A stretch of 64,000 bases of DNA from an uncultured Chlamydiae bacterium (lineage in GTDB: Bacteria; Chlamydiota; Chlamydiia; Chlamydiales; JAJFMB01): contig CAVOJR010000001.1 of NCBI GenBank assembly GCA_963696295.1, forward strand, positions 2,720,001 through 2,784,000, written 5' to 3'. A program made the translations under genes and the position numbers. Shown here piece by piece: positions 18,009 through 28,744 of this stretch. Below the pieces are notes generated by a model. It ran no database searches, had not been told where the DNA came from, and was given only the letters and a program-made list of their open reading frames with translations. The stretch's first letter is position 1. Each line of letters begins with the position of its first letter.

Positions 18009-19373
18009 ATGCTAAAAATAGTTCGAGAAACACAGCTTTTCAACGTTCAAGGTAACCAGGTCTACTTTATCAGTCTGGGTTGTCCACGCAACTTGGTGGA
18101 TACAGAGGTGATGTTAGGTATTCTTTTAAAAGCCGGATACCAAGCGGCCCAGCAGCTGCAAGAAGCGGATTATATTGTAATCAATACCTGCGGTTTTTTG
18201 GATGCTTCGCGAAAGGAATCATTAGATACCATTCGGGCAAGTTTAGAGGAACGGAAAAAAGGGGCCAAAGTAATTGCCACCGGCTGCATGGTTCAAACGC
18301 ATCACGAAATGATCAAAAATGCCTGCCCTGAAGTAGATTATATGCTGGGATCGGGGGATGTGGAAAAGATTTTAACCGCTGTCCAGTCGCAAACAGAAGG
18401 CTCCCACATCACTTCAGCCAGGAGCTATCTCGAAGCCGGCGAGGTACCCCGGACATTTTCAACTCCTAAGCACTACGCCTATTTAAAGATTGCAGAAGGG
18501 TGCCGCAAGCGCTGCAGCTATTGTATTATTCCCGATATCAAAGGTCCTTTGAAAAGCAAACCGCTTGAGCGTATTGTTCATGAGTTTCGCCTGTTGCTGA
18601 AAAGCGGGGTGAAAGAAGTGATCCTCATCGCGCAGGATTTGGGAGACTGGGGTAAAGATATCGGTTTGCGAAAGGGGGAAGGACTCCTTCTTTTGCTGAA
18701 AGAGCTCCTTAAGGAAAAAGGGGATTTTTGGCTTCGCCTGTTATACCTCTATCCCGATGAAATCACCGATGACTTGATTCATCTGATTAAAAGCGATTCC
18801 CGCATTTGCCCCTATCTCGATATGCCCATTCAGCATATCAATAATACGATTTTGAAGAGCATGCGAAGAACCACTTCGAAAGAGGAGATTATAGATATCA
18901 TCCTTAAGCTCCGTAAAGAGATACCCGATATTTCCATCAGAACAAGCTTGATTGTCGGCTTCCCCGGTGAAACAGAAGAACAATTTAATGAGTTAAAGGA
19001 TTTCCTTAAGAAATATCCTCTGGAGAATGTAGGTATTTTCGCCTTCTCCCCTGAACCGAACAGCCATGCGATTACTTTGCCTGATCAGGTTGATGAAAAA
19101 ACAAAAGAACGCCGGCAGAAGCAGCTTGCTAAAGTGCAGCAAAAAGTCCTGGAGCAGACACAACAGAAACTGGTAGGCAAGAAGTTACAGGTTATTGTTG
19201 AGGGATACCATCCCGATTCCAATCTGTTGATGCGCGCCCGTCATAGAGGGCAGTGCCCTGAAATCGACGGCCAAGTAATCATCAACGACTGCCGCAAGGT
19301 GAAAGCCTTTGGCGAGTGGTACGAAGCTGAGATCACAGGCGTGGCCGGCTACGATCTGATTGCTTCGATCTGA
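18009..19373 (+). CDS. rimO: ribosomal protein S12 methylthiotransferase
   Basis: SLGCPRNLVDTE, NTCGF, AYLKIAEGCRKRCSYCIIP, PEIDG TRAM domain. Confidence 0.96.
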   Translation: MLKIVRETQLFNVQGNQVYFISLGCPRNLVDTEVMLGILLKAGYQAAQQLQEADYIVINTCGFLDASRKESLDTIRASLEERKKGAKVIATGCMVQTHHEMIKNACPEVDYMLGSGDVEKILTAVQSQTEGSHITSARSYLEAGEVPRTFSTPKHYAYLKIAEGCRKRCSYCIIPDIKGPLKSKPLERIVHEFRLLLKSGVKEVILIAQDLGDWGKDIGLRKGEGLLLLLKELLKEKGDFWLRLLYLYPDEITDDLIHLIKSDSRICPYLDMPIQHINNTILKSMRRTTSKEEIIDIILKLRKEIPDISIRTSLIVGFPGETEEQFNELKDFLKKYPLENVGIFAFSPEPNSHAITLPDQVDEKTKERRQKQLAKVQQKVLEQTQQKLVGKKLQVIVEGYHPDSNLLMRARHRGQCPEIDGQVIINDCRKVKAFGEWYEAEITGVAGYDLIASI

Positions 19374-20554
19374 GGGAGTTCTTCCACTTCCTCCAGCGCC
19401 TCTTGATATCTCTCCCCATTCCACTCCAAGTCATAGGTAAAGGTCGAAGGAACGCGAATTCCCAGGCGTTTGCTCAGCGCCATATAATGCACGAACAAAA
19501 ACGGCACATAAGCCACGGGTATGAGATCGCTGAATCTCAGAATCACATCCTTAACGGTGAGCAAATTTTTAAGGAAATCTAAAAAGGTCTTATTCTCAGG
19601 GAGTTGGCGCCATCCATAAATCAACATTCCGACAGCCAGCTGCCTTTTAGCTCCAGGAGTTGGTACGATCGTCTCATTCATTGGCTGGAAAAGGGCTTTA
19701 TCAATATTTTCTCTGGTGAAAAGGTGCGCCCCGCTAGTGGCTCTTGGATTGCATTCAATAGCAAATAGCCCTCTCTCATCTTCAATAAAATCAAAGGCGA
19801 TTTGCCCGGTAAAATTGATTTTTTGGACAAACTCTTTCACCCAAGCTAATATTCCCTTATGGTCGATCGACTCAAACATCACGCAGCTGTTTCCATCCAC
19901 GGCAAAGCCAACCGGATATATGGAGTGCGCGCTTAAGACTCCGTTGTGGCATATCCCGTAAGTGCAATACCTTTTCCCTTCGATCCATTCTTGAGCCACC
20001 CATGGATTGAAAGACTCGATTTCGAGTATAGGGGGTTGTTGGGGCGGCGTCACTTTTTTGATTTTTTGGGATCCCCTGGAGTAGCAGGGTTTTAAAATGT
20101 AGGGTTTTTTAAAGGGGATATTTTTTAAATCTTCTCGGCAGGTGATGAGATGGGTTTCGGGAGGATTCATATCCAAATCCTTCAACAATTGCATAAATCT
20201 CCATTTGTTATGCAGGGTATGCATGATGTCAAAGGGAGAGCACATCACAGTGCAATGGGAAGGAAAGCGATCCAGGGATTTGGAGATATAGAAGATTTCT
20301 TCGCATATCGGCAGCAAAAAGTCTATTTTTTCCCTCTTGACAATATCGACGAGGGAGTCGATGAATTTTTCCGGCTCAAATCGCGGACTGGGCACAATAA
20401 ATGATTTTTCCACGGCTTTTGAGAGCCGGCAGACATGATAATTTGAAGTCTCGGCTATATAAATTTTGTGTCCTGCAGCATGGAGTTGTCGTGAAAGATC
20501 CAATGTCACCCAAGACCGTCCGGCTGTCATCAAAATTTTTTTCTGTTTACTCAT
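19349..20554 (-). CDS. ATP-grasp domain-containing protein
   Basis: YILKPCYSR, WVAQEWIEG, FTGQIAFDFI, AIECNPRATSG. Confidence 0.88.
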   Translation of the reverse strand: MSKQKKILMTAGRSWVTLDLSRQLHAAGHKIYIAETSNYHVCRLSKAVEKSFIVPSPRFEPEKFIDSLVDIVKREKIDFLLPICEEIFYISKSLDRFPSHCTVMCSPFDIMHTLHNKWRFMQLLKDLDMNPPETHLITCREDLKNIPFKKPYILKPCYSRGSQKIKKVTPPQQPPILEIESFNPWVAQEWIEGKRYCTYGICHNGVLSAHSIYPVGFAVDGNSCVMFESIDHKGILAWVKEFVQKINFTGQIAFDFIEDERGLFAIECNPRATSGAHLFTRENIDKALFQPMNETIVPTPGAKRQLAVGMLIYGWRQLPENKTFLDFLKNLLTVKDVILRFSDLIPVAYVPFLFVHYMALSKRLGIRVPSTFTYDLEWNGERYQEALEEVEELPQIEAIRS

Positions 20555-20667
20555 GTTATCCTTTATCGTATTGGGCCAAATGTAAAGCTTGACCATGGCT
20601 TCTTAATAAAGAAGAGACAAAATTATTTGCAAATCAAAAAAACAAAAATAGCAATTATATTGGGGGA

Positions 20668-21312
20668 TTAGGATGCGTTGTTGTAAAATCGTTGAGAGAC
20701 TGTGTTCCAATCGATATTTTTAAAAAAGGCATCCACATAAGCTGCTCTGTCTAGCTTATATTCCGTTATGTAGGCGTGTTCGAAAACATCCATGATGAGA
20801 ATGGGTTTGGCGCCTGAGAGATGACCCAAGTCATGCTCATTGATCCAAGTGTTGATCAAACGGCCCTGGCCAGGTTCCAGGTATAGCACAGCCCATCCAA
20901 TGCCGCGAATGAGACCCGTTGCGATAAAATCCTCTTTCCACTTGTCGAAGCTTCCAAAGTCTTTAACAATTTGCTGGTAGAGGGAGTCTTTTTGATCCAA
21001 GGGTGTTTTACCACCTAAATTTTCGAAGTAGTATTCATGCAGGCGCATGCCGTCAAATTCCCAGCCGAACATTCTTTTGAGGCCGGCAAATTCCGGTCCG
21101 CGGTTATTGCCGCTCGCATCTAAGTCCTGAATCATTTTCAGGAGCTTATTGCTGTTTGCCACATACCCCTGGTAGAGCTTAAAGTGCATTTTCAGCAAAT
21201 CGTCGCTAAATCCGGGAGTATTGCCGATGAGCTTGTCAAAGTTTTTGGGTTCATATTCGGCATAACAGCAAATAAAGAGTGAGATGAAGAAAAGTAAAAA
21301 GGTATTTTTCAT
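20668..21312 (-). CDS. Fe/Mn superoxide dismutase family protein with signal peptide
   Basis: HFKLYQGYV, MRLHEYYFENLG, GIGWAVL, MDVFEHAY. Confidence 0.92.
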   Translation of the reverse strand: MKNTFLLFFISLFICCYAEYEPKNFDKLIGNTPGFSDDLLKMHFKLYQGYVANSNKLLKMIQDLDASGNNRGPEFAGLKRMFGWEFDGMRLHEYYFENLGGKTPLDQKDSLYQQIVKDFGSFDKWKEDFIATGLIRGIGWAVLYLEPGQGRLINTWINEHDLGHLSGAKPILIMDVFEHAYITEYKLDRAAYVDAFFKNIDWNTVSQRFYNNAS

Positions 21313-21752
21313 TTGTTTCCTTTATTATAAGTGCCCATGAGTTCTGTTTGTGCCAAAATGTGATTCTTGATCGCGGCAAGCACTTCATTTTTTCCCGCAT
21401 TGGCCGCAAGCGATAAAGTGGTATCTAAAGCATAAAGCTTAAAGAAGTAGCGATGCGTTCCAGACGGGGGACAGGGGCCTCCGTACTTTTGTTTTCCCCA
21501 GCTATTTTTCCCTTGCACGGCGCCTGGAGGGACGGTGTTTTCTTTGATTACCCCTGTTGGAGAGATGTTCCAGACGACCCAATGATCCCAAGTGCCGTTT
21601 GGAGCGTCGGGGTCATCCATGATCAGCACTAAAGACTTGGCTTCTTTGGGAATTCCCGCAATATGCAAGGGAGGGTTGATATCATCCCCTTGGCATGTGT
21701 AACGAGTAGGTATCGTCTGGTGGTGTGCAAAAGCCGGACTGGTAAGTTCCAT
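21309..21752 (-). CDS. YbhB/YbcL family (PEBP, Raf kinase inhibitor-like) protein
   Basis: DDPDAP..WDHW, YGGPCPPSGTHRYFFKLYALD. Confidence 0.95.
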   Translation of the reverse strand: MELTSPAFAHHQTIPTRYTCQGDDINPPLHIAGIPKEAKSLVLIMDDPDAPNGTWDHWVVWNISPTGVIKENTVPPGAVQGKNSWGKQKYGGPCPPSGTHRYFFKLYALDTTLSLAANAGKNEVLAAIKNHILAQTELMGTYNKGNK

Positions 21753-21817
21753 GATCTAACCTGTTTGAAATAATTAAAAAGTTGTATACCCTAAATGAAA
21801 CCCTTTGTCAATACTGT

Positions 21818-22219
21818 ATGAAGTTTATTTGCGATCAGATGTTAGTCCGCCTGGGAAGATGGTTAAGAGCTGCGGGATACGATACGGTCATTATCGACAG
21901 ATCGATGCCGGATACAGAGATTCTCTCCAGGGCGCTTGCTGAAGGGAGGATTCTTTTAACGCGCGACCGTTTTTTTGTGGGAAAGGAAAACTCGATTTTT
22001 TTGACTGCCAACACGGTCGAGTCCTGCGCGGAAGAATTGAGCAGAGAAATAAAAATAGACTGGCTGGAGGCGCCATTTACGCGCTGTCTGGAATGCAACG
22101 CTATTCTCGAACCCGAAGATTTGGGCACATTTTGTCCACAATGTCAGAAGCATTATTGGGAAGGCAGCCATACCCAGCGGATGCTGGCTACCTTAACCCG
22201 TTGGAATGCTATTACATGA
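21818..22219 (+). CDS. Mut7-C RNase domain protein (PIN-like plus Zn ribbon)
   Basis: FICDQML.RLGRWLRAAGYD, RILLTRD, RCLECN, CPQCQKHYWEGSH. Confidence 0.9.
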   Translation: MKFICDQMLVRLGRWLRAAGYDTVIIDRSMPDTEILSRALAEGRILLTRDRFFVGKENSIFLTANTVESCAEELSREIKIDWLEAPFTRCLECNAILEPEDLGTFCPQCQKHYWEGSHTQRMLATLTRWNAIT

Positions 22220-22394
22220 AGTCGCGATCCATTACGGTTTTGCGGTTGTTGCGCTTAGCGTTTTCGCTAGCTCTTTCACACTCCCGCATAACGACTTTAG
22301 TGAGTTCATCCATCACTGCCGCTGAGGTATTTAACCCATATTTGCCTTTGATGAACTCTTTGACTTTACTCGATACAACAAGTTTTTCACTCAC
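22212..22394 (-). CDS. bacterial histone-fold protein (Bd0055/HBb-like)
   Basis: 60 aa, GTG start after AAAGGGGG SD; LVVSSKVKEFIK..LNTS and AKRNNRKTVMDRDF match the short bacterial histone pattern. Confidence 0.88.
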   Translation of the reverse strand: MSEKLVVSSKVKEFIKGKYGLNTSAAVMDELTKVVMRECERASENAKRNNRKTVMDRDFM

Positions 22395-22623
22395 GGTTTC
22401 CCCCTTTCTTGGTATGCTCTCTTTTTTCTAAATAGCACGCTGCCCGTTCAACTGAAAAGGAGAAACGCACTGAGGGGTAAAATAAATTTATATGTATGAC
22501 AATCAATGAGATGCGTTTTAATCTTTTGTAAAGAAGATTATTTACTGGATTTTAATATAATCTTTATAGTAAATTAATGGTTATAATGTATTGTTGGGCT
22601 TTTAATAATTAGAGGAGGGGAAA

Positions 22624-23022
22624 ATGACGATCACCCAATTTATCAAGGATTTTTGTTCAGACATTAACACCATCGGCGAACAAGGCGATTATCTGCAGGC
22701 TTTTGCTGAGCAAAGAGCGAAATCCCTGGTCTTCCGCGGGGTTGGGGTTTATCTTGTGGTTTCCTCAGGCCTCAATATTCTCGCCATGCCCCATTTGAGA
22801 GTCGCTTCGATAGTATGGCAGCTATTTCGCATGGCCATCGGACACGATCTGATCGTGATAGGAATTAACCAAAGGGCCGAGATTGGCGGATCAGCGAGGC
22901 GCGCTGCCGGTAATCTATTCTCCGCCTGGTGGAATGAAGGGCACAGGCACTTTGAGGGAACTCTTATTATCCAACATATTTATAGGGAATTGCAACATCT
23001 GGCAAATCTATCAAAGTCCTAG
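22624..23022 (+). CDS. hypothetical membrane-associated protein
   Basis: GAGGAGG SD, 132 aa, central hydrophobic region. Confidence 0.65.
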   Translation: MTITQFIKDFCSDINTIGEQGDYLQAFAEQRAKSLVFRGVGVYLVVSSGLNILAMPHLRVASIVWQLFRMAIGHDLIVIGINQRAEIGGSARRAAGNLFSAWWNEGHRHFEGTLIIQHIYRELQHLANLSKS

Positions 23023-23023
23023 A

Positions 23024-23366
23024 AGAATCCATGAGGAGCTCTACAAAAGTTCCAGTAGCTTCCAGTAGAATCCATAAGGGGCCAGACCCTGCAGATTCCA
23101 TTAGAATCCATGAGCAGCTCTACAAAAGTTCCAGTAGAATCCATGAGGAGCTCTACAAAAGTTCCAGTAGCTTCCAGTAGAATCCATGAGCAACTCTACA
23201 AAAGTTCCAGTAGAATCCATGAGGAGCCAGATCCTGCAGATTCCAGTAGAATCGCTCTACCAAAACCCCAGTAGCTTCCAGTAGAATCCATGAGCAGCTC
23301 TACAAAAGTTCCGGTAGCTTCCAGTAGAATCGCTCTACCAAAACCCCAGTAGATTCCAATAGAATC
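23024..23366. repeat. mosaic tandem array of nine 33-43 bp units derived from the 3' end of the DASS gene
   Basis: agaatc anchors at 23024, 23067, 23103, 23136, 23179, 23212, 23248, 23283, 23326, 23361. Confidence 0.9.
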
Positions 23367-24738
23367 CCCCGATGAACAGCCAGATAAAGAAATTGAGCAG
23401 GCTCACGATCAAACCCACTCTCCACCAGTCGCTGACTGAAACATACCCCGCGCCGAATAATACGGCTGCGGGTCCCGAACTGTATTGCGTGAGGCCGCCA
23501 AAGAGGCTGCTGAAAAAGGCCAGGGTATAAGCGGCAAGGCCTTGCGGCGCGCCGAGCGAGATCGCGGCCGCTAAAAAGGCACAGTACATCGCGCCGACAT
23601 GGGCGAGGTTGCTCGCGAAAAAATAATGGGTGTAAAAGTAAATGACAGCCAAACAGAAGAAGGCCGCCGGCCAGGCGAGGCCTTGTATATGACTCGTGGC
23701 AAATGAGCTGAACCAATGGGTTAAGCCGAGCTTGTTCAGTTCAGAGGCCATCATCAGTAAAACAGCAAACCAGACCAGCGTTTCCCAGGCATCCTGCTCC
23801 CCCCGGATATCCTGCCAGGTTAAGACGTTTGTGATGAGCAGGATGACGAGTCCGATCAACGCGGTCACGGTCGCTTTTATATCCAATAGGGGGCCTGCAA
23901 TCCAGAGCCCCACCAGAAAAACAAATACGGATAACATGATCCATTCGTTTTGTTTTATCGGACCCATTTTAGCGAGCTCCTCTTTGGCAAAGGCCGCGGC
24001 ATTCGGCGTCTCTTTGACTAGGGGAGGGAAGATGCGATAAATCAAATAGGGCACCAGAATCAGGCTGATGATTCCGGGAACGAAAGCGGCGACAGCCCAG
24101 CTGCCCCAGGTGAGTGAGACCCCAAAATTGCTCGCGATCTCGACAATGAGGGGATTGGCCGCCATGCTGGTTAAGAACATGGCGCTCGTAATGCAGGCCG
24201 ATTGGAAGGATACTGTCGTTAAAAAAGCGCCCACCCGCCTGGCTGTGGGCTGGTGCGGGCGGCTTTCAAAGGTGTTGGAGAGGGATTTGATAATGGGCAA
24301 AATGATGCCTCCGGCGCGGGCCGTCGAGCTGGGTATGGCCGGAGCGAGCAAAAGGTCGGTCAGGGCGAGACCGTAGCCGAGGCCCAGCGTTTTTTTGCCA
24401 AACAGCAGCATGAAATAGAAGCTGAGCCTGGCGCCAATGCCGGTTTTGATGAAGCCGCGCGAAATAAAATAGGCAAAGACGATCAGCCACACAATTTCAT
24501 TGCTAAAGCCGCTAAAGGCATCGGCAAATGTCAGGGTTTTAGTGATTAGTGTAAAAGTCAGACCCATCAAAGCCATGCAACCCATCGGAAAAGGGCTTAA
24601 GACAATCCCGACGATTGTGCCGACAAAAATAGCGAAAAGATGCCAGGCGCGCGGATCGACGTTTTCAGGAGGGGGAAGGAACCAGAAGAGGGATCCTGCC
24701 AGGAAAGCGATGAGCAGATAGAGATATTTTCTATTCAT
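23335..24738 (-). CDS. DASS family di/tricarboxylate (2-oxoglutarate/malate-type) transporter
   Basis: AWHLFAIF, PAIPSSTARAGGI, TSAMFLTSMAANPL, YTHYFFASNLAHVGAM. Confidence 0.94.
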   Translation of the reverse strand: MNRKYLYLLIAFLAGSLFWFLPPPENVDPRAWHLFAIFVGTIVGIVLSPFPMGCMALMGLTFTLITKTLTFADAFSGFSNEIVWLIVFAYFISRGFIKTGIGARLSFYFMLLFGKKTLGLGYGLALTDLLLAPAIPSSTARAGGIILPIIKSLSNTFESRPHQPTARRVGAFLTTVSFQSACITSAMFLTSMAANPLIVEIASNFGVSLTWGSWAVAAFVPGIISLILVPYLIYRIFPPLVKETPNAAAFAKEELAKMGPIKQNEWIMLSVFVFLVGLWIAGPLLDIKATVTALIGLVILLITNVLTWQDIRGEQDAWETLVWFAVLLMMASELNKLGLTHWFSSFATSHIQGLAWPAAFFCLAVIYFYTHYFFASNLAHVGAMYCAFLAAAISLGAPQGLAAYTLAFFSSLFGGLTQYSSGPAAVLFGAGYVSVSDWWRVGLIVSLLNFFIWLFIGGFYWNLLGFW

Positions 24739-26071: not shown

Positions 26072-26136
26072 TTTGTTAAATTTTCTGTACAATTATGAGA
26101 TTTTTTTTTAATATCATTAAAAAAAAGAGGATCCTC

Positions 26137-26781
26137 ATGATTTCATTTTTTCTCATCCTAGGCATCTTCTGGACGGCAACAAGTGAGTGCCGCTCGCTCG
26201 ATAATGAAATAAAACTCGCCATTGTTCAAGCCGCTTACGATGGTGTCAAAATGGCCGATGATTTGATCGGCCTTTCCGACAACTATTTTTATTCCATCCA
26301 AGATAAGCAACAAGCCGGGGCAGTTTATAATCAAGATATTGAACTTCAAATAACTTCAATCAACAAGAAAATAAGTTCTCTGACTCCCCATGCTTCAAGA
26401 TCGGCTGATGTGATCTCAAATACCTTGCTGCGATTGAATGAAGCGATTAATCAATTGATTGTGGACTCCTCATCTAATTCTCCCTCTTCAGTTATAATAG
26501 AGGATAATAAGCAAATCCAGGAAGTCGTAAAAAGCTTTAAAGAATCTTTCTCTAAAACTGTGGAAAATGAAGAGCAAGTTCACAAGGCCATTCACTTGGC
26601 AGAAGGCTATCTTCGAGATTTTGTTTTTAATATGGAAAAGTACATTAGAGAATTAAATTTGCTGGTCTATCAATCCAATGACGCCAATATAAAGTTGTTA
26701 CGATCAAATACGCATCTCGTGGCCTATTTGAGGAAATTTGTCGAAGCATCTGCCTTAGCTACTTATTTTGGAAATTTATGA
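26137..26781 (+). CDS. secreted alpha-helical hypothetical protein
   Basis: Signal-like MISFFLILGIFWTA; ATGA overlap with next gene; track start 26095. Confidence 0.7.
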   Translation: MISFFLILGIFWTATSECRSLDNEIKLAIVQAAYDGVKMADDLIGLSDNYFYSIQDKQQAGAVYNQDIELQITSINKKISSLTPHASRSADVISNTLLRLNEAINQLIVDSSSNSPSSVIIEDNKQIQEVVKSFKESFSKTVENEEQVHKAIHLAEGYLRDFVFNMEKYIRELNLLVYQSNDANIKLLRSNTHLVAYLRKFVEASALATYFGNL

Positions 26782-27503
26782 GATTTTTATTTTGGTTTTC
26801 TTTTATTTGCCTGCCCCTTTTTGTTTATGGTGAAACGGAAGCATACAGCCCTTCCATCCCGGGTCAGCCTTTAATTTTTCACACTACAACCCCATCGCTG
26901 ACACTTCTTCAAAAAGCGATATTGGAAAGGCTTTCTACTTGCCAACAATATAAGTTTGTGGCGTTATCCCGAGTGAGCCTTAAGCTGACTGATTTGTATA
27001 TGGGTTTGGCAGGAGCCTCATTTATCCCCCTCGATCCCGCACAAAAGCAAAGAGTGACAGCTCTATATACCCTTAATATCGGCACCTCGATTCACAAAAT
27101 TCACAGGCTGTTTGTTTCTGCGAATGGCCATCAGGCAGAAGAAATCGCGCAGTTGATCACACAAACTTTGGCCAACTTCACAAAAGTAGCCCTTCAGATG
27201 ATTGATGATGCTGTTCTGGGAAATAACGCACAATTCCAACAAGATTTTCAGAATATGCAAACCGAGGTGATCAATTTTTATGAAAGAGGCGTTCATAAGC
27301 TTTCCAAAAATTCCGCTCTCATAGCTGAAGCTGAAAGCTCTTTGGAAGGGTTGATTAGCAATTTCTCCTTGTTTCTCGCCAATACCAACAGCTCAGTGAA
27401 TCAGGGGCAGCCGGTCTCCACTAGCACAGTGTTAGCTAGACAACAAGTGAACAAAAATTTATTAGCCTTTATTGAAAGAACATTTGGACTACAAATTTTA
27501 TGA
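26778..27503 (+). CDS. secreted alpha-helical hypothetical protein, probable distant paralog of the upstream gene
   Basis: Signal peptide MRFLFWFSFICLPLFVYG; ATGA overlaps at both ends. Confidence 0.7.
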   Translation: MRFLFWFSFICLPLFVYGETEAYSPSIPGQPLIFHTTTPSLTLLQKAILERLSTCQQYKFVALSRVSLKLTDLYMGLAGASFIPLDPAQKQRVTALYTLNIGTSIHKIHRLFVSANGHQAEEIAQLITQTLANFTKVALQMIDDAVLGNNAQFQQDFQNMQTEVINFYERGVHKLSKNSALIAEAESSLEGLISNFSLFLANTNSSVNQGQPVSTSTVLARQQVNKNLLAFIERTFGLQIL

Positions 27504-28744
27504 TTCTATTATTTCTATTTGCTTTTTCATTTTTACATGGCGCAAATTATCCCTTTCCGACGCATAATACTTATTATGCCGGCGTGATCAAACCCCAAGT
27601 CGGCCAAGGGGCTATGGATCAAGCGGTTGAGCAGCTTTATCAAGAGTGGAAGGATACCTATCTCGCCTATCGTCCTAATTATCCCAATCAATGCTATATA
27701 TCGTATAATCAGGATGGTTCCTCCGAACCGGCAAACGCCGTAAGTGTTTCTGAGGGGCATGGGTATGGGATGATCATTACCGCTTACATGGCAGGATTTG
27801 ATTCAGAGGCGCAAACAATTTTTGATAATCTGTTCCGTTATTATCAAGCTTTTCCCAGCGTGATCACGACTCCTTTAATGGGTTGGCAGCAAGTGCTCAA
27901 GAATGGCCAAATCATCGCAAATCCAAAAGGCGGAAACGATTCGGCAACCGATGGGGATATGGATATCGCTTTTGCCCTTTTACTCGCGGATAAACAATGG
28001 GGCAGTCAGGGCAGTATTAATTATTTAAGTTATGCCAATATCATGATAAACGCCATCTTATCAGGCGATGTCAATCAGGAGATGAACACTCTGAAATTAG
28101 GGGATTGGGTAGATAACGATGATGAAGATTTTGGAACGGCAACGCGCCCTTCCGATTTTATGTTAAACCACATAAGAAATTTCCGAGTCGCCTCCAATAA
28201 TCCCAAGTGGGATTCAGTGATGACCAAGACTTATTCGATCATAAACGAGTTATTTGATCACTTTAGCCCGCAAACAGGACTCTTACCCGATTTTTCTGAA
28301 TTTATCGATGGGGCCTATATTCCGGCAACCGAGGAATTTTTAGAGAGGGTAGAGGATGGCTATTATAGCTGGAATGCCTGCCGCACTCCTTGGCGTATCG
28401 CCGCAGATTATATTTTGTCCGGGGATACGCGCGCATTTAATCAGTTGACAAGACTAAATAACTGGATTCTCGAAGAAACAGATGAGGACCCTGAAGAGAT
28501 TAAAGCGGGCTACAAGCTAGATGGAACTCCCTTAGTTGAATATTCGGATTTGGCTTTTACCACCCCTTTTGCCGTCAGCGCCATGATCCATTCATCAAAT
28601 CAGAAATGGTTAAATGACCTTTGGGATTATACGAGTTCACAGCCTACCTCCGAGTCCAACTATTTCAACAATACAGTGCGTCTTCTCTGCCTGATTATGG
28701 TATCGGGAAACTGGTGGACTCCTCTAAACTTGCCCGGCAAGTGA
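27500..28744 (+). CDS. glycoside hydrolase family 8 (chitosanase/endoglucanase/lichenase-like)
   Basis: VSEGHGYGM, DSATDGDMDIAFALLLADKQWG, TRPSDFM, TGLLPDF, YSWNACRTPWR; signal peptide. Confidence 0.93.
   Translation: MILLFLFAFSFLHGANYPFPTHNTYYAGVIKPQVGQGAMDQAVEQLYQEWKDTYLAYRPNYPNQCYISYNQDGSSEPANAVSVSEGHGYGMIITAYMAGFDSEAQTIFDNLFRYYQAFPSVITTPLMGWQQVLKNGQIIANPKGGNDSATDGDMDIAFALLLADKQWGSQGSINYLSYANIMINAILSGDVNQEMNTLKLGDWVDNDDEDFGTATRPSDFMLNHIRNFRVASNNPKWDSVMTKTYSIINELFDHFSPQTGLLPDFSEFIDGAYIPATEEFLERVEDGYYSWNACRTPWRIAADYILSGDTRAFNQLTRLNNWILEETDEDPEEIKAGYKLDGTPLVEYSDLAFTTPFAVSAMIHSSNQKWLNDLWDYTSSQPTSESNYFNNTVRLLCLIMVSGNWWTPLNLPGK

Follow-up and report, generated by a model that had tools for sequence, protein, structure and literature searches.

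The closest described relative of the protein considered here is the histone Bd0055 (HBb) of Bdellovibrio bacteriovorus, which is represented by PDB entries 8FVX, 8CMP, 9EZZ and 9F0E. HBb binds throughout the genome without specificity and bends DNA in the manner of HU and IHF (PMC11317129); a bend of about 84 degrees over 36 bp has been described, as has coating of the DNA as a filament, and the two HBb studies disagree on whether the DNA is held straight or bent. Stand-alone histones of the same subfamily are present in the cultured chlamydiae Waddlia chondrophila (ADI38622.1, UniProt D6YWW1, wcw_1270/WCW_RS06135; 62 aa) and Simkania negevensis (CCB88880.1). HLp of Leptospira (PDB 9QT0) and HTkC of Thermococcus (PDB 9F2C) have an α3-truncated fold like that of our protein (TM 0.70-0.74). 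Hc1 (hctA, PF07432) and Hc2 (hctB, PF07382) are likewise small, basic and tied to the nucleoid of the elementary body (EB), with a similar late mRNA in Waddlia, but they are Lys/Ala-rich, H1-like proteins, unrelated to the histone in sequence and fold and encoded elsewhere in the genome.

Neither this histone class nor its presence in chlamydiae is new, and the novelty implied by the first-pass annotation of this DNA was overstated, since papers already describe chlamydial histones and show the Waddlia one to be highly expressed. The Chlamydiota belong to the phyla for which "bacterial dimer" histones are reported (PMC11390915), and the DNA contacts are described as conserved in them (PMC11317129). 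High expression of the W. chondrophila histone appears in Fig. 6a of PMC10627809, which also gives sequences from Waddlia, Simkania and other chlamydiae and whose supplementary PDF appears to hold a Chlamydiae tree, and a preprint on HLp aligns the Waddlia and Simkania proteins (10.1101/2025.05.08.652872). A literature search that covered few subscription papers returned no study of what a histone-fold protein does as chlamydiae develop. What gives the present locus its value is a late-gene pattern open to test and a family with two histones, not the existence of the gene.

Within the window (the whole stretch of 64,000 nucleotides that was analyzed), the histone gene occupies positions 22212-22394 on the minus strand and encodes a protein of 60 amino acids, 6.9 kDa and pI 9.5, of the α3-truncated "bacterial dimer" (Bd0055/HBb) type. 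Translation of the minus strand from the GTG start to the TAA stop gives exactly the protein originally proposed. The ribosome-binding site, described at first sight as strong, is indeed so: a Shine-Dalgarno sequence (22400-22407, minus strand; placed from the sequence and the 16S 3' end), with AAGGGGG at 22400-22406, lies 5 nt before the GTG and can pair, with one G:U pair when read by eye, with the 16S 3' end CCUCCUU that is present twice in the genome. A purine-rich tract occupies the same position in related loci. All 29 other extracted histone loci have an ATG in the same register, and the start codon is therefore correct. The chain comes from a single ORF enclosed by stops and bears neither a further histone fold nor a fused domain, which rules out a pseudodimeric, ZZ or Rab-fused histone. 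Doublet (pseudodimeric) relatives do exist among the collected sequences (P0013-P0015, 135-158 aa, 52-56% identity to the window protein), in which the HBb-like fold occurs twice. The expectation that so short an ORF would be easily missed was not borne out, since the identical 60-aa protein is already in a public collection, though none of the 4 members of its cluster carries a name; the gap is one of annotation, with neither Pfam nor NCBIfam naming this histone.

Sequence and fold both point to HBb. The best PDB match by phmmer is Bd0055/HBb (E 1.5e-11), gapless over residues 1-59 at about 50% identity, followed by weaker matches to HLp (E 0.002), HmvA and HTkC (E 0.029). An AlphaFold2 model built from a 36-row alignment (mean pLDDT 89.2) places helices at residues 3-19, 27-48 and 56-59, so that α2 is shortened and α3 is reduced to four residues, and the R-K-T-V-x-x-x-D motif reads R51-K52-T53-V54...D58 with the R51-D58 clamp intact. 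This agrees with the histone-fold pattern, truncated α3 and signature noted on first reading, and with the close likeness to Bd0055 proposed there. HBb chains make up the five best Foldseek hits (E 1.4e-4 to 5e-4, TM about 0.7), with no others at E≤0.001, and the next structural match is HLp at an equal TM (0.74). Residues S9, K10, K12, R51, K52, T53 and D58 are invariant in all 36 aligned proteins and K16 is kept in 35. Nine of the ten DNA-contact residues given for HBb (PMC11317129) are identical in the window protein, the exception being T8, which is replaced by serine; the S9-K10 pair, the RKT motif, the R-D clamp and the lack of a histidine at position 48 are also shared. With these contacts kept and a pI of 9.5, the window protein probably binds DNA.

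A model of two copies, proposed earlier as a comparison with Bd0055, predicts a head-to-tail dimer as in HBb. It scores 0.81, against 0.00 for the best of 3 controls, with separate runs agreeing on at least 98% of contacts and a pLDDT of at least 89. This passes a mark that 20 of 30 solved homodimers attain, as does 1 of 23 single chains; with the structure of the HBb dimer already solved, the result shows likeness only. The best-predicted contacts between copies join residues 21-24 to 53-54, which is the L1-L2 pairing of histone dimers. One further check that had been suggested, a search with histone-fold profiles, did not succeed: Pfam, including CBFD_NFYB_HMF, gave no family at E≤0.1, and the NCBIfam profile archaea_histone (NF043032) scored 17.2 bits against a cut-off of 50. 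Membership of the archaeal nucleosomal histones (HMf/HTkA) was rejected on that score and on the lack of a full α3, the chain ending at residue 60, and of the tetramer histidine, position 48 being arginine. The protein also has no match to PF07432 or PF07382 and so is not an Hc1 or Hc2. All of this makes it nearly certain that the window gene encodes a stand-alone bacterial histone of the HBb/Bd0055 type. We place it in the "bacterial dimer" class of α3 histones, with a small chance of higher assembly, because its sequence and fold are HBb-like and both the archaeal histidine and the arginine of the face-to-face interface are absent, while the asparagine of that interface (N49) is present; the class criterion, close clustering with Bd0055/HBb (PMC11390915), was applied here through phmmer.

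The timing of expression can be followed in the Waddlia orthologue. The protein extracted from locus L015 is letter for letter the published Waddlia sequence; it is 65% identical to the window protein and differs in its gene neighborhood and its ATG start. Because D6YWV8 and D6YWV9 correspond to wcw_1267 and wcw_1268, D6YWW1 should be wcw_1270, a gene of 189 nt (62 codons and a stop) that shares its coordinates with WCW_RS06135. In the source data of PMC10627809, where the protein column of the Waddlia rows carries a Thermus tag that was evidently carried over, the histone RNA stands at percentile 50.3 in reticulate bodies (RBs) and 89.8 in EBs. WCW_RS06135 has a log2 RB/EB ratio of -2.06 (padj 3e-36), that is, 4.2-fold higher in EBs, close to the -2.01 of WCW_RS00975, a "histone-like developmental protein" that we take to be hctA (PMC6090853). 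In iron-starved aberrant bodies wcw_1270 falls 3.5-fold (log2 -1.81, FDR 4.6e-17), compared with -1.27 for hctA, -0.61 for wcw_1268 and -0.79 for wcw_1269 (PMC7760296). The gene thus moves with hctA in both sets of public data, where the tables name it only as a hypothetical protein.

The likeliest account of these observations is the following. The protein would pair head to tail as a homodimer, contact the DNA backbone irrespective of sequence through its L1-L2 loops and α1, and bend or coat DNA, forming no nucleosomes, as extrapolated in each case from HBb. Judging from the Waddlia orthologue, its gene would be transcribed late, in step with hctA and at a lower level, and the product would be loaded during RB-to-EB differentiation as an accessory nucleoid protein adding to Hc1 and Hc2, dispensable in many chlamydial lineages. 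To this account as a whole, an HBb-type histone acting as a late, accessory, DNA-bending nucleoid dimer, we assign a probability of roughly 0.55. Of the part in EB condensation suggested by the first-pass annotation, the link with EBs has indirect support from RNA-seq of the Waddlia orthologue; the protein may take part in condensation itself. All the stage data are mRNA measurements from a family other than that of the host.

The most serious competitor is that the histone is a housekeeping DNA bender, similar to HU or IHF, that acts throughout the cycle and has no special role in the EB, a reading that we regard as possible but unlikely. It would accord with the genome-wide binding and HU/IHF-like bending of HBb (PMC11317129), with the single HU/IHF match in the host genome and with a Waddlia gene still at the median in RBs. 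Enrichment in EBs is moreover not specific, because the genes flanking the Waddlia histone rise nearly as much (-1.87 and -1.65) and 479 genes in all are up in EBs; IHF (-1.09) and Dps (-2.19) shift the same way (PMC6090853). The histone mRNA of Bdellovibrio reaches its highest rank during growth, at the 98th percentile versus the 64th in the condensed attack phase (PMC10627809), and mRNA timing therefore need not track condensation. Late-promoter motifs are not enriched upstream of 30 homologues when patterns for σ54, σ28 and σ66 are used: the σ54 pattern occurs in none of the 30 regions (2 in a loose form) against a shuffle mean of 0.2 (loose, 1.6), the σ28 pattern in 2 against 1.2 and the σ66 pattern in 12 against 9.6. 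Against a housekeeping role, two independent Waddlia datasets move the histone in the same direction as hctA, and the shift under iron starvation exceeds both that of hctA and those of the two upstream neighbors. Heparin proteomics of Waddlia EBs includes neither wcw_1270 nor any "hct" entry among its 685 proteins (PMC6426960), and the 8 supplements of PMC4989314, with its tables of Euo ChIP, yield no hit for wcw_1270, RS06135 or "hctA", the last of which may bear another tag there; neither result weighs on the question. The Waddlia histone gene WCW_RS06135 also contains the centre of a ChIP peak that is specific to Wcw_1456 (PMC6426960, supplement 5).

A late accessory dimer also has to be set against a different assembly, in which the protein forms a face-to-face tetramer that wraps DNA like Leptospira HLp, by means of an N49 that HBb lacks. 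N49 and R51 correspond to HLp N53 and R55, N49 also matches N45 of D4GZE0, and HLp is, as noted, the next structural hit with an equal TM. Of the three interface residues that mark histones of the face-to-face (FtF) type, HLp R49, N53 and R55 (PMC11390915, section 7; 10.1101/2025.05.08.652872), the first is however replaced here by N45, and membership of that group was rejected on this ground, the other two being present. The RKT motif, in place of the RxT of face-to-face histones, and the lysines of α1 are typical of bacterial dimers, the sequence is far nearer to HBb than to HLp, and of the 36 aligned relatives only 9 have N49, all of which makes a tetramer improbable for the window protein.

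Further candidates for a face-to-face assembly are found elsewhere in the phylum. Twelve of the 35 genomes of one family (f9) have a second, weaker histone match. Eight of these were extracted and form their own well-supported clade in a quick tree, and seven (L036:9620-9850, L037:1013-1216, L038, L039, L040, L041, L043) were aligned, one at a contig end being left out. All seven carry both face-to-face residues, with arginine where the window protein has N45 and asparagine where it has N49, and six have a Lys-rich N-terminal tail; the one that was tested is nearer to HLp (E 4.7e-7) than to HBb (E 1.9e-5). About 8 kb separates the two histone genes of L036. Simkania likewise has a second, tailed histone, whose sequence is already in Table S1 of PMC10627809, whereas the host genome has one histone only, the next-best profile match being at E 1.8. 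As a tentative extension, doubtful in its full breadth, about a quarter of chlamydial species might add a true histone to the EB nucleoid as its third component, loaded in the course of development, beside Hc1 and Hc2. Family f9 would then run two histones, one an HBb-type dimer and the other a face-to-face-type tetramer with a lysine tail and the potential to wrap DNA, and the Chlamydiaceae and several other families would have lost this layer or never had it. If true, a bacterium would have a histone chromatin state under developmental regulation, and cultured Waddlia and Simkania are available for tests.

The gene is patchy across the phylum. A search with the single protein found the histone in 92 of 401 genomes of the phylum, and a profile search in 93 of the 400 scored (72 of the 334 that are well completed; 59 of 212 genera). 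It is near-fixed in f9 (31/35), f5 (5/5) and f13 (5/6), patchy in f7 (19/69) and f10 (9/90), and not found by the profile in f4 (0/29), f6 (0/46) or f3 (0/23). We read f4, with genomes of 1.0-1.4 Mb and strong Hc2 matches, as the Chlamydiaceae; in agreement with this, Table S1 of PMC10627809 lists no Chlamydia species among the 21 of 34 places covered, although its Table S4 gives them as searched. The 307 genomes with no profile match include many from lineages that presumably make EBs. The description "abundant, essential" has been shown to hold for the histones of Bdellovibrio and Leptospira only, and need not carry over to chlamydiae. Two of the chlamydial histone matches are truncated or interrupted, by an in-frame stop in L046 (G183:C123) and by fragmentation over three contigs in L047 (G038:C80), and are possibly pseudogenes or assembly breaks.

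Hc1, in contrast, is near-universal (339 of 400 genomes), and this bears on the idea that in carrier lineages the histone is the main EB-condensing protein and replaces the H1-like Hc1 and Hc2. It is kept in 79 of 93 histone carriers, the same share as in non-carriers (260 of 307; Fisher p = 1, with kin not independent and G005 left out), and the histone is thus an addition to Hc1, not a substitute. PF07382 is a less reliable guide, being a low-complexity family that matches 80 of 400 genomes, 29 of 29 in f4 and elsewhere weakly, in some cases on the tail of Hc1. The host genome (3.43 Mb, 97% complete) itself has both H1-like genes, as a check proposed at the outset revealed: hctA (PF07432, E 3e-21) and a gene for a 212-aa Lys/Ala/His repeat protein that is Hc2-like (PF07382, E 1e-15) and possibly orthologous to hctB. 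The contrast first drawn between this histone and the Hc1/Hc2 of Chlamydiaceae accordingly finds no support, the histone being independent of Hc1 across the phylum, while the assignment of the genome to a chlamydia is upheld by Hc1 and accompanied by an OmcB-like match below the cut-off. In Waddlia, hctA transcripts outnumber those of the histone in EBs (10,700 versus 1,148, about 9-fold, or about 4-fold per base), in a study that removed RNA below 200 nt and may undercount the short histone transcript. The EB-enriched Waddlia mRNA would suit a main condensing role, as would the finding that C. trachomatis still condenses its DNA when hctA and hctB are knocked down, which implies that other factors take part (PMC13317200). 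Set beside the retention of Hc1 and the transcript counts, these make replacement very improbable. Since the histone has no match in the family read as Chlamydiaceae, it is not the missing condensation factor of C. trachomatis. How EB chromatin is organized is a live question after that knock-down, and the histone offers a testable handle on it in environmental chlamydiae, with no answer for Chlamydiaceae, where it was not found. The Hc2-like protein (L004:1465-2103; G000 C1:3091814 region) consists of near-perfect 10-residue Lys/Ala/His repeats. The ORF beside its gene may encode an IS200/IS605 transposase.

The gene is under purifying selection: against an 82%-identical relative (L049), dN is 0.095, dS 1.53 and dN/dS about 0.06, and pN is well under pS in all 8 pairs tested, dS being saturated in 5. 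That it might be a functionless spurious ORF, recent horizontal passenger or assembly contaminant, as the lack of a Pfam match, the patchy distribution and the intermixing of chlamydial with Bdellovibrionota and Myxococcota copies might suggest, is largely refuted by selection and synteny and scarcely credible for a gene that sits on a 3.3-Mb contig amid chlamydial genes, has the same neighbors in relatives, is carried by 93 genomes in 59 of 212 genera and has an expressed orthologue in Waddlia. The intermixing itself has low support in a quick tree (101 rows by 61 columns, 56 of 98 inner branches open).

The neighborhood is informative mainly about inheritance. The gene is carried by all 3 genomes of the host's family. 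Genes for a RimO-like radical SAM protein (plus strand; the name is our own reading of UPF0004, radical SAM and TRAM domains), an ATP-grasp protein (minus) and an Fe/Mn superoxide dismutase (SOD, minus) at 18009-21312 are common to the window and to the same-family genome G206, where the order is histone-SOD-ATP-grasp-RimO-like. In L049 the histone is directly preceded by a gene for a DASS anion symporter, which in the window is found at 23335-24738 (minus), upstream on the histone strand. Such shared neighbors, together with carriage by the whole family, indicate vertical inheritance within the family and not a functional operon; one with Mut7-C, YbhB or SOD was rejected, as any one neighbor recurs in at most 5 of 30 loci and SOD is near in 3 of the 30. 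Genes for YbhB/PEBP and Mut7-C (21309-22219) separate histone from SOD in the window, the two being adjacent in G206, and the RimO-like gene is oppositely oriented there.

On its 3' side the histone converges on the gene for a Mut7-C RNase domain (21818-22219, plus strand; PF01927, E 1.5e-28), which is not conserved beside the histone. The 8-bp overlap noticed earlier, at 22212-22219, is exact, the PF01927 ORF ending at 22219. On the 5' side lies an AT-rich intergenic region of 229 bp (22395-22623), presumably the promoter region. The AT-rich character reported for it is real, with 35% GC in the 150 nt upstream of the histone against 46% for the locus; it is not the histone's own, being shared with a divergent 132-aa ORF (22624-23022, plus). 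It contains no promoter-like site on the histone strand, the two sites found both lying on the plus strand, with 1.9 expected by chance. The leader (22380-22480, minus) can fold with the Shine-Dalgarno sequence paired (pairing 0.92, a level reached by 3 of 120 other genes of the genome; z -1.8 to -2.3). Such a hairpin was rejected as a family feature, z≤-1.8 being found in 4 of 31 homologues versus 16 of 120 other genes of the genome, and as the fold is not kept in 30 homologous leaders it would serve at most for local translational control.

The 132-aa ORF has no Pfam or NCBIfam match and is followed by a tandem array (23013-23366; periods of 33, 43 and 112 bp) that overlaps the end of the DASS gene; ORF and array look inserted, because the histone and DASS genes are adjacent in L049. 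Farther along, two ORFs without assignment (26095-27503) lie upstream, on the same strand, of a gene for a glycosyl hydrolase of family 8 (27500-28744; E 1.9e-25) with a signal-peptide-like start.
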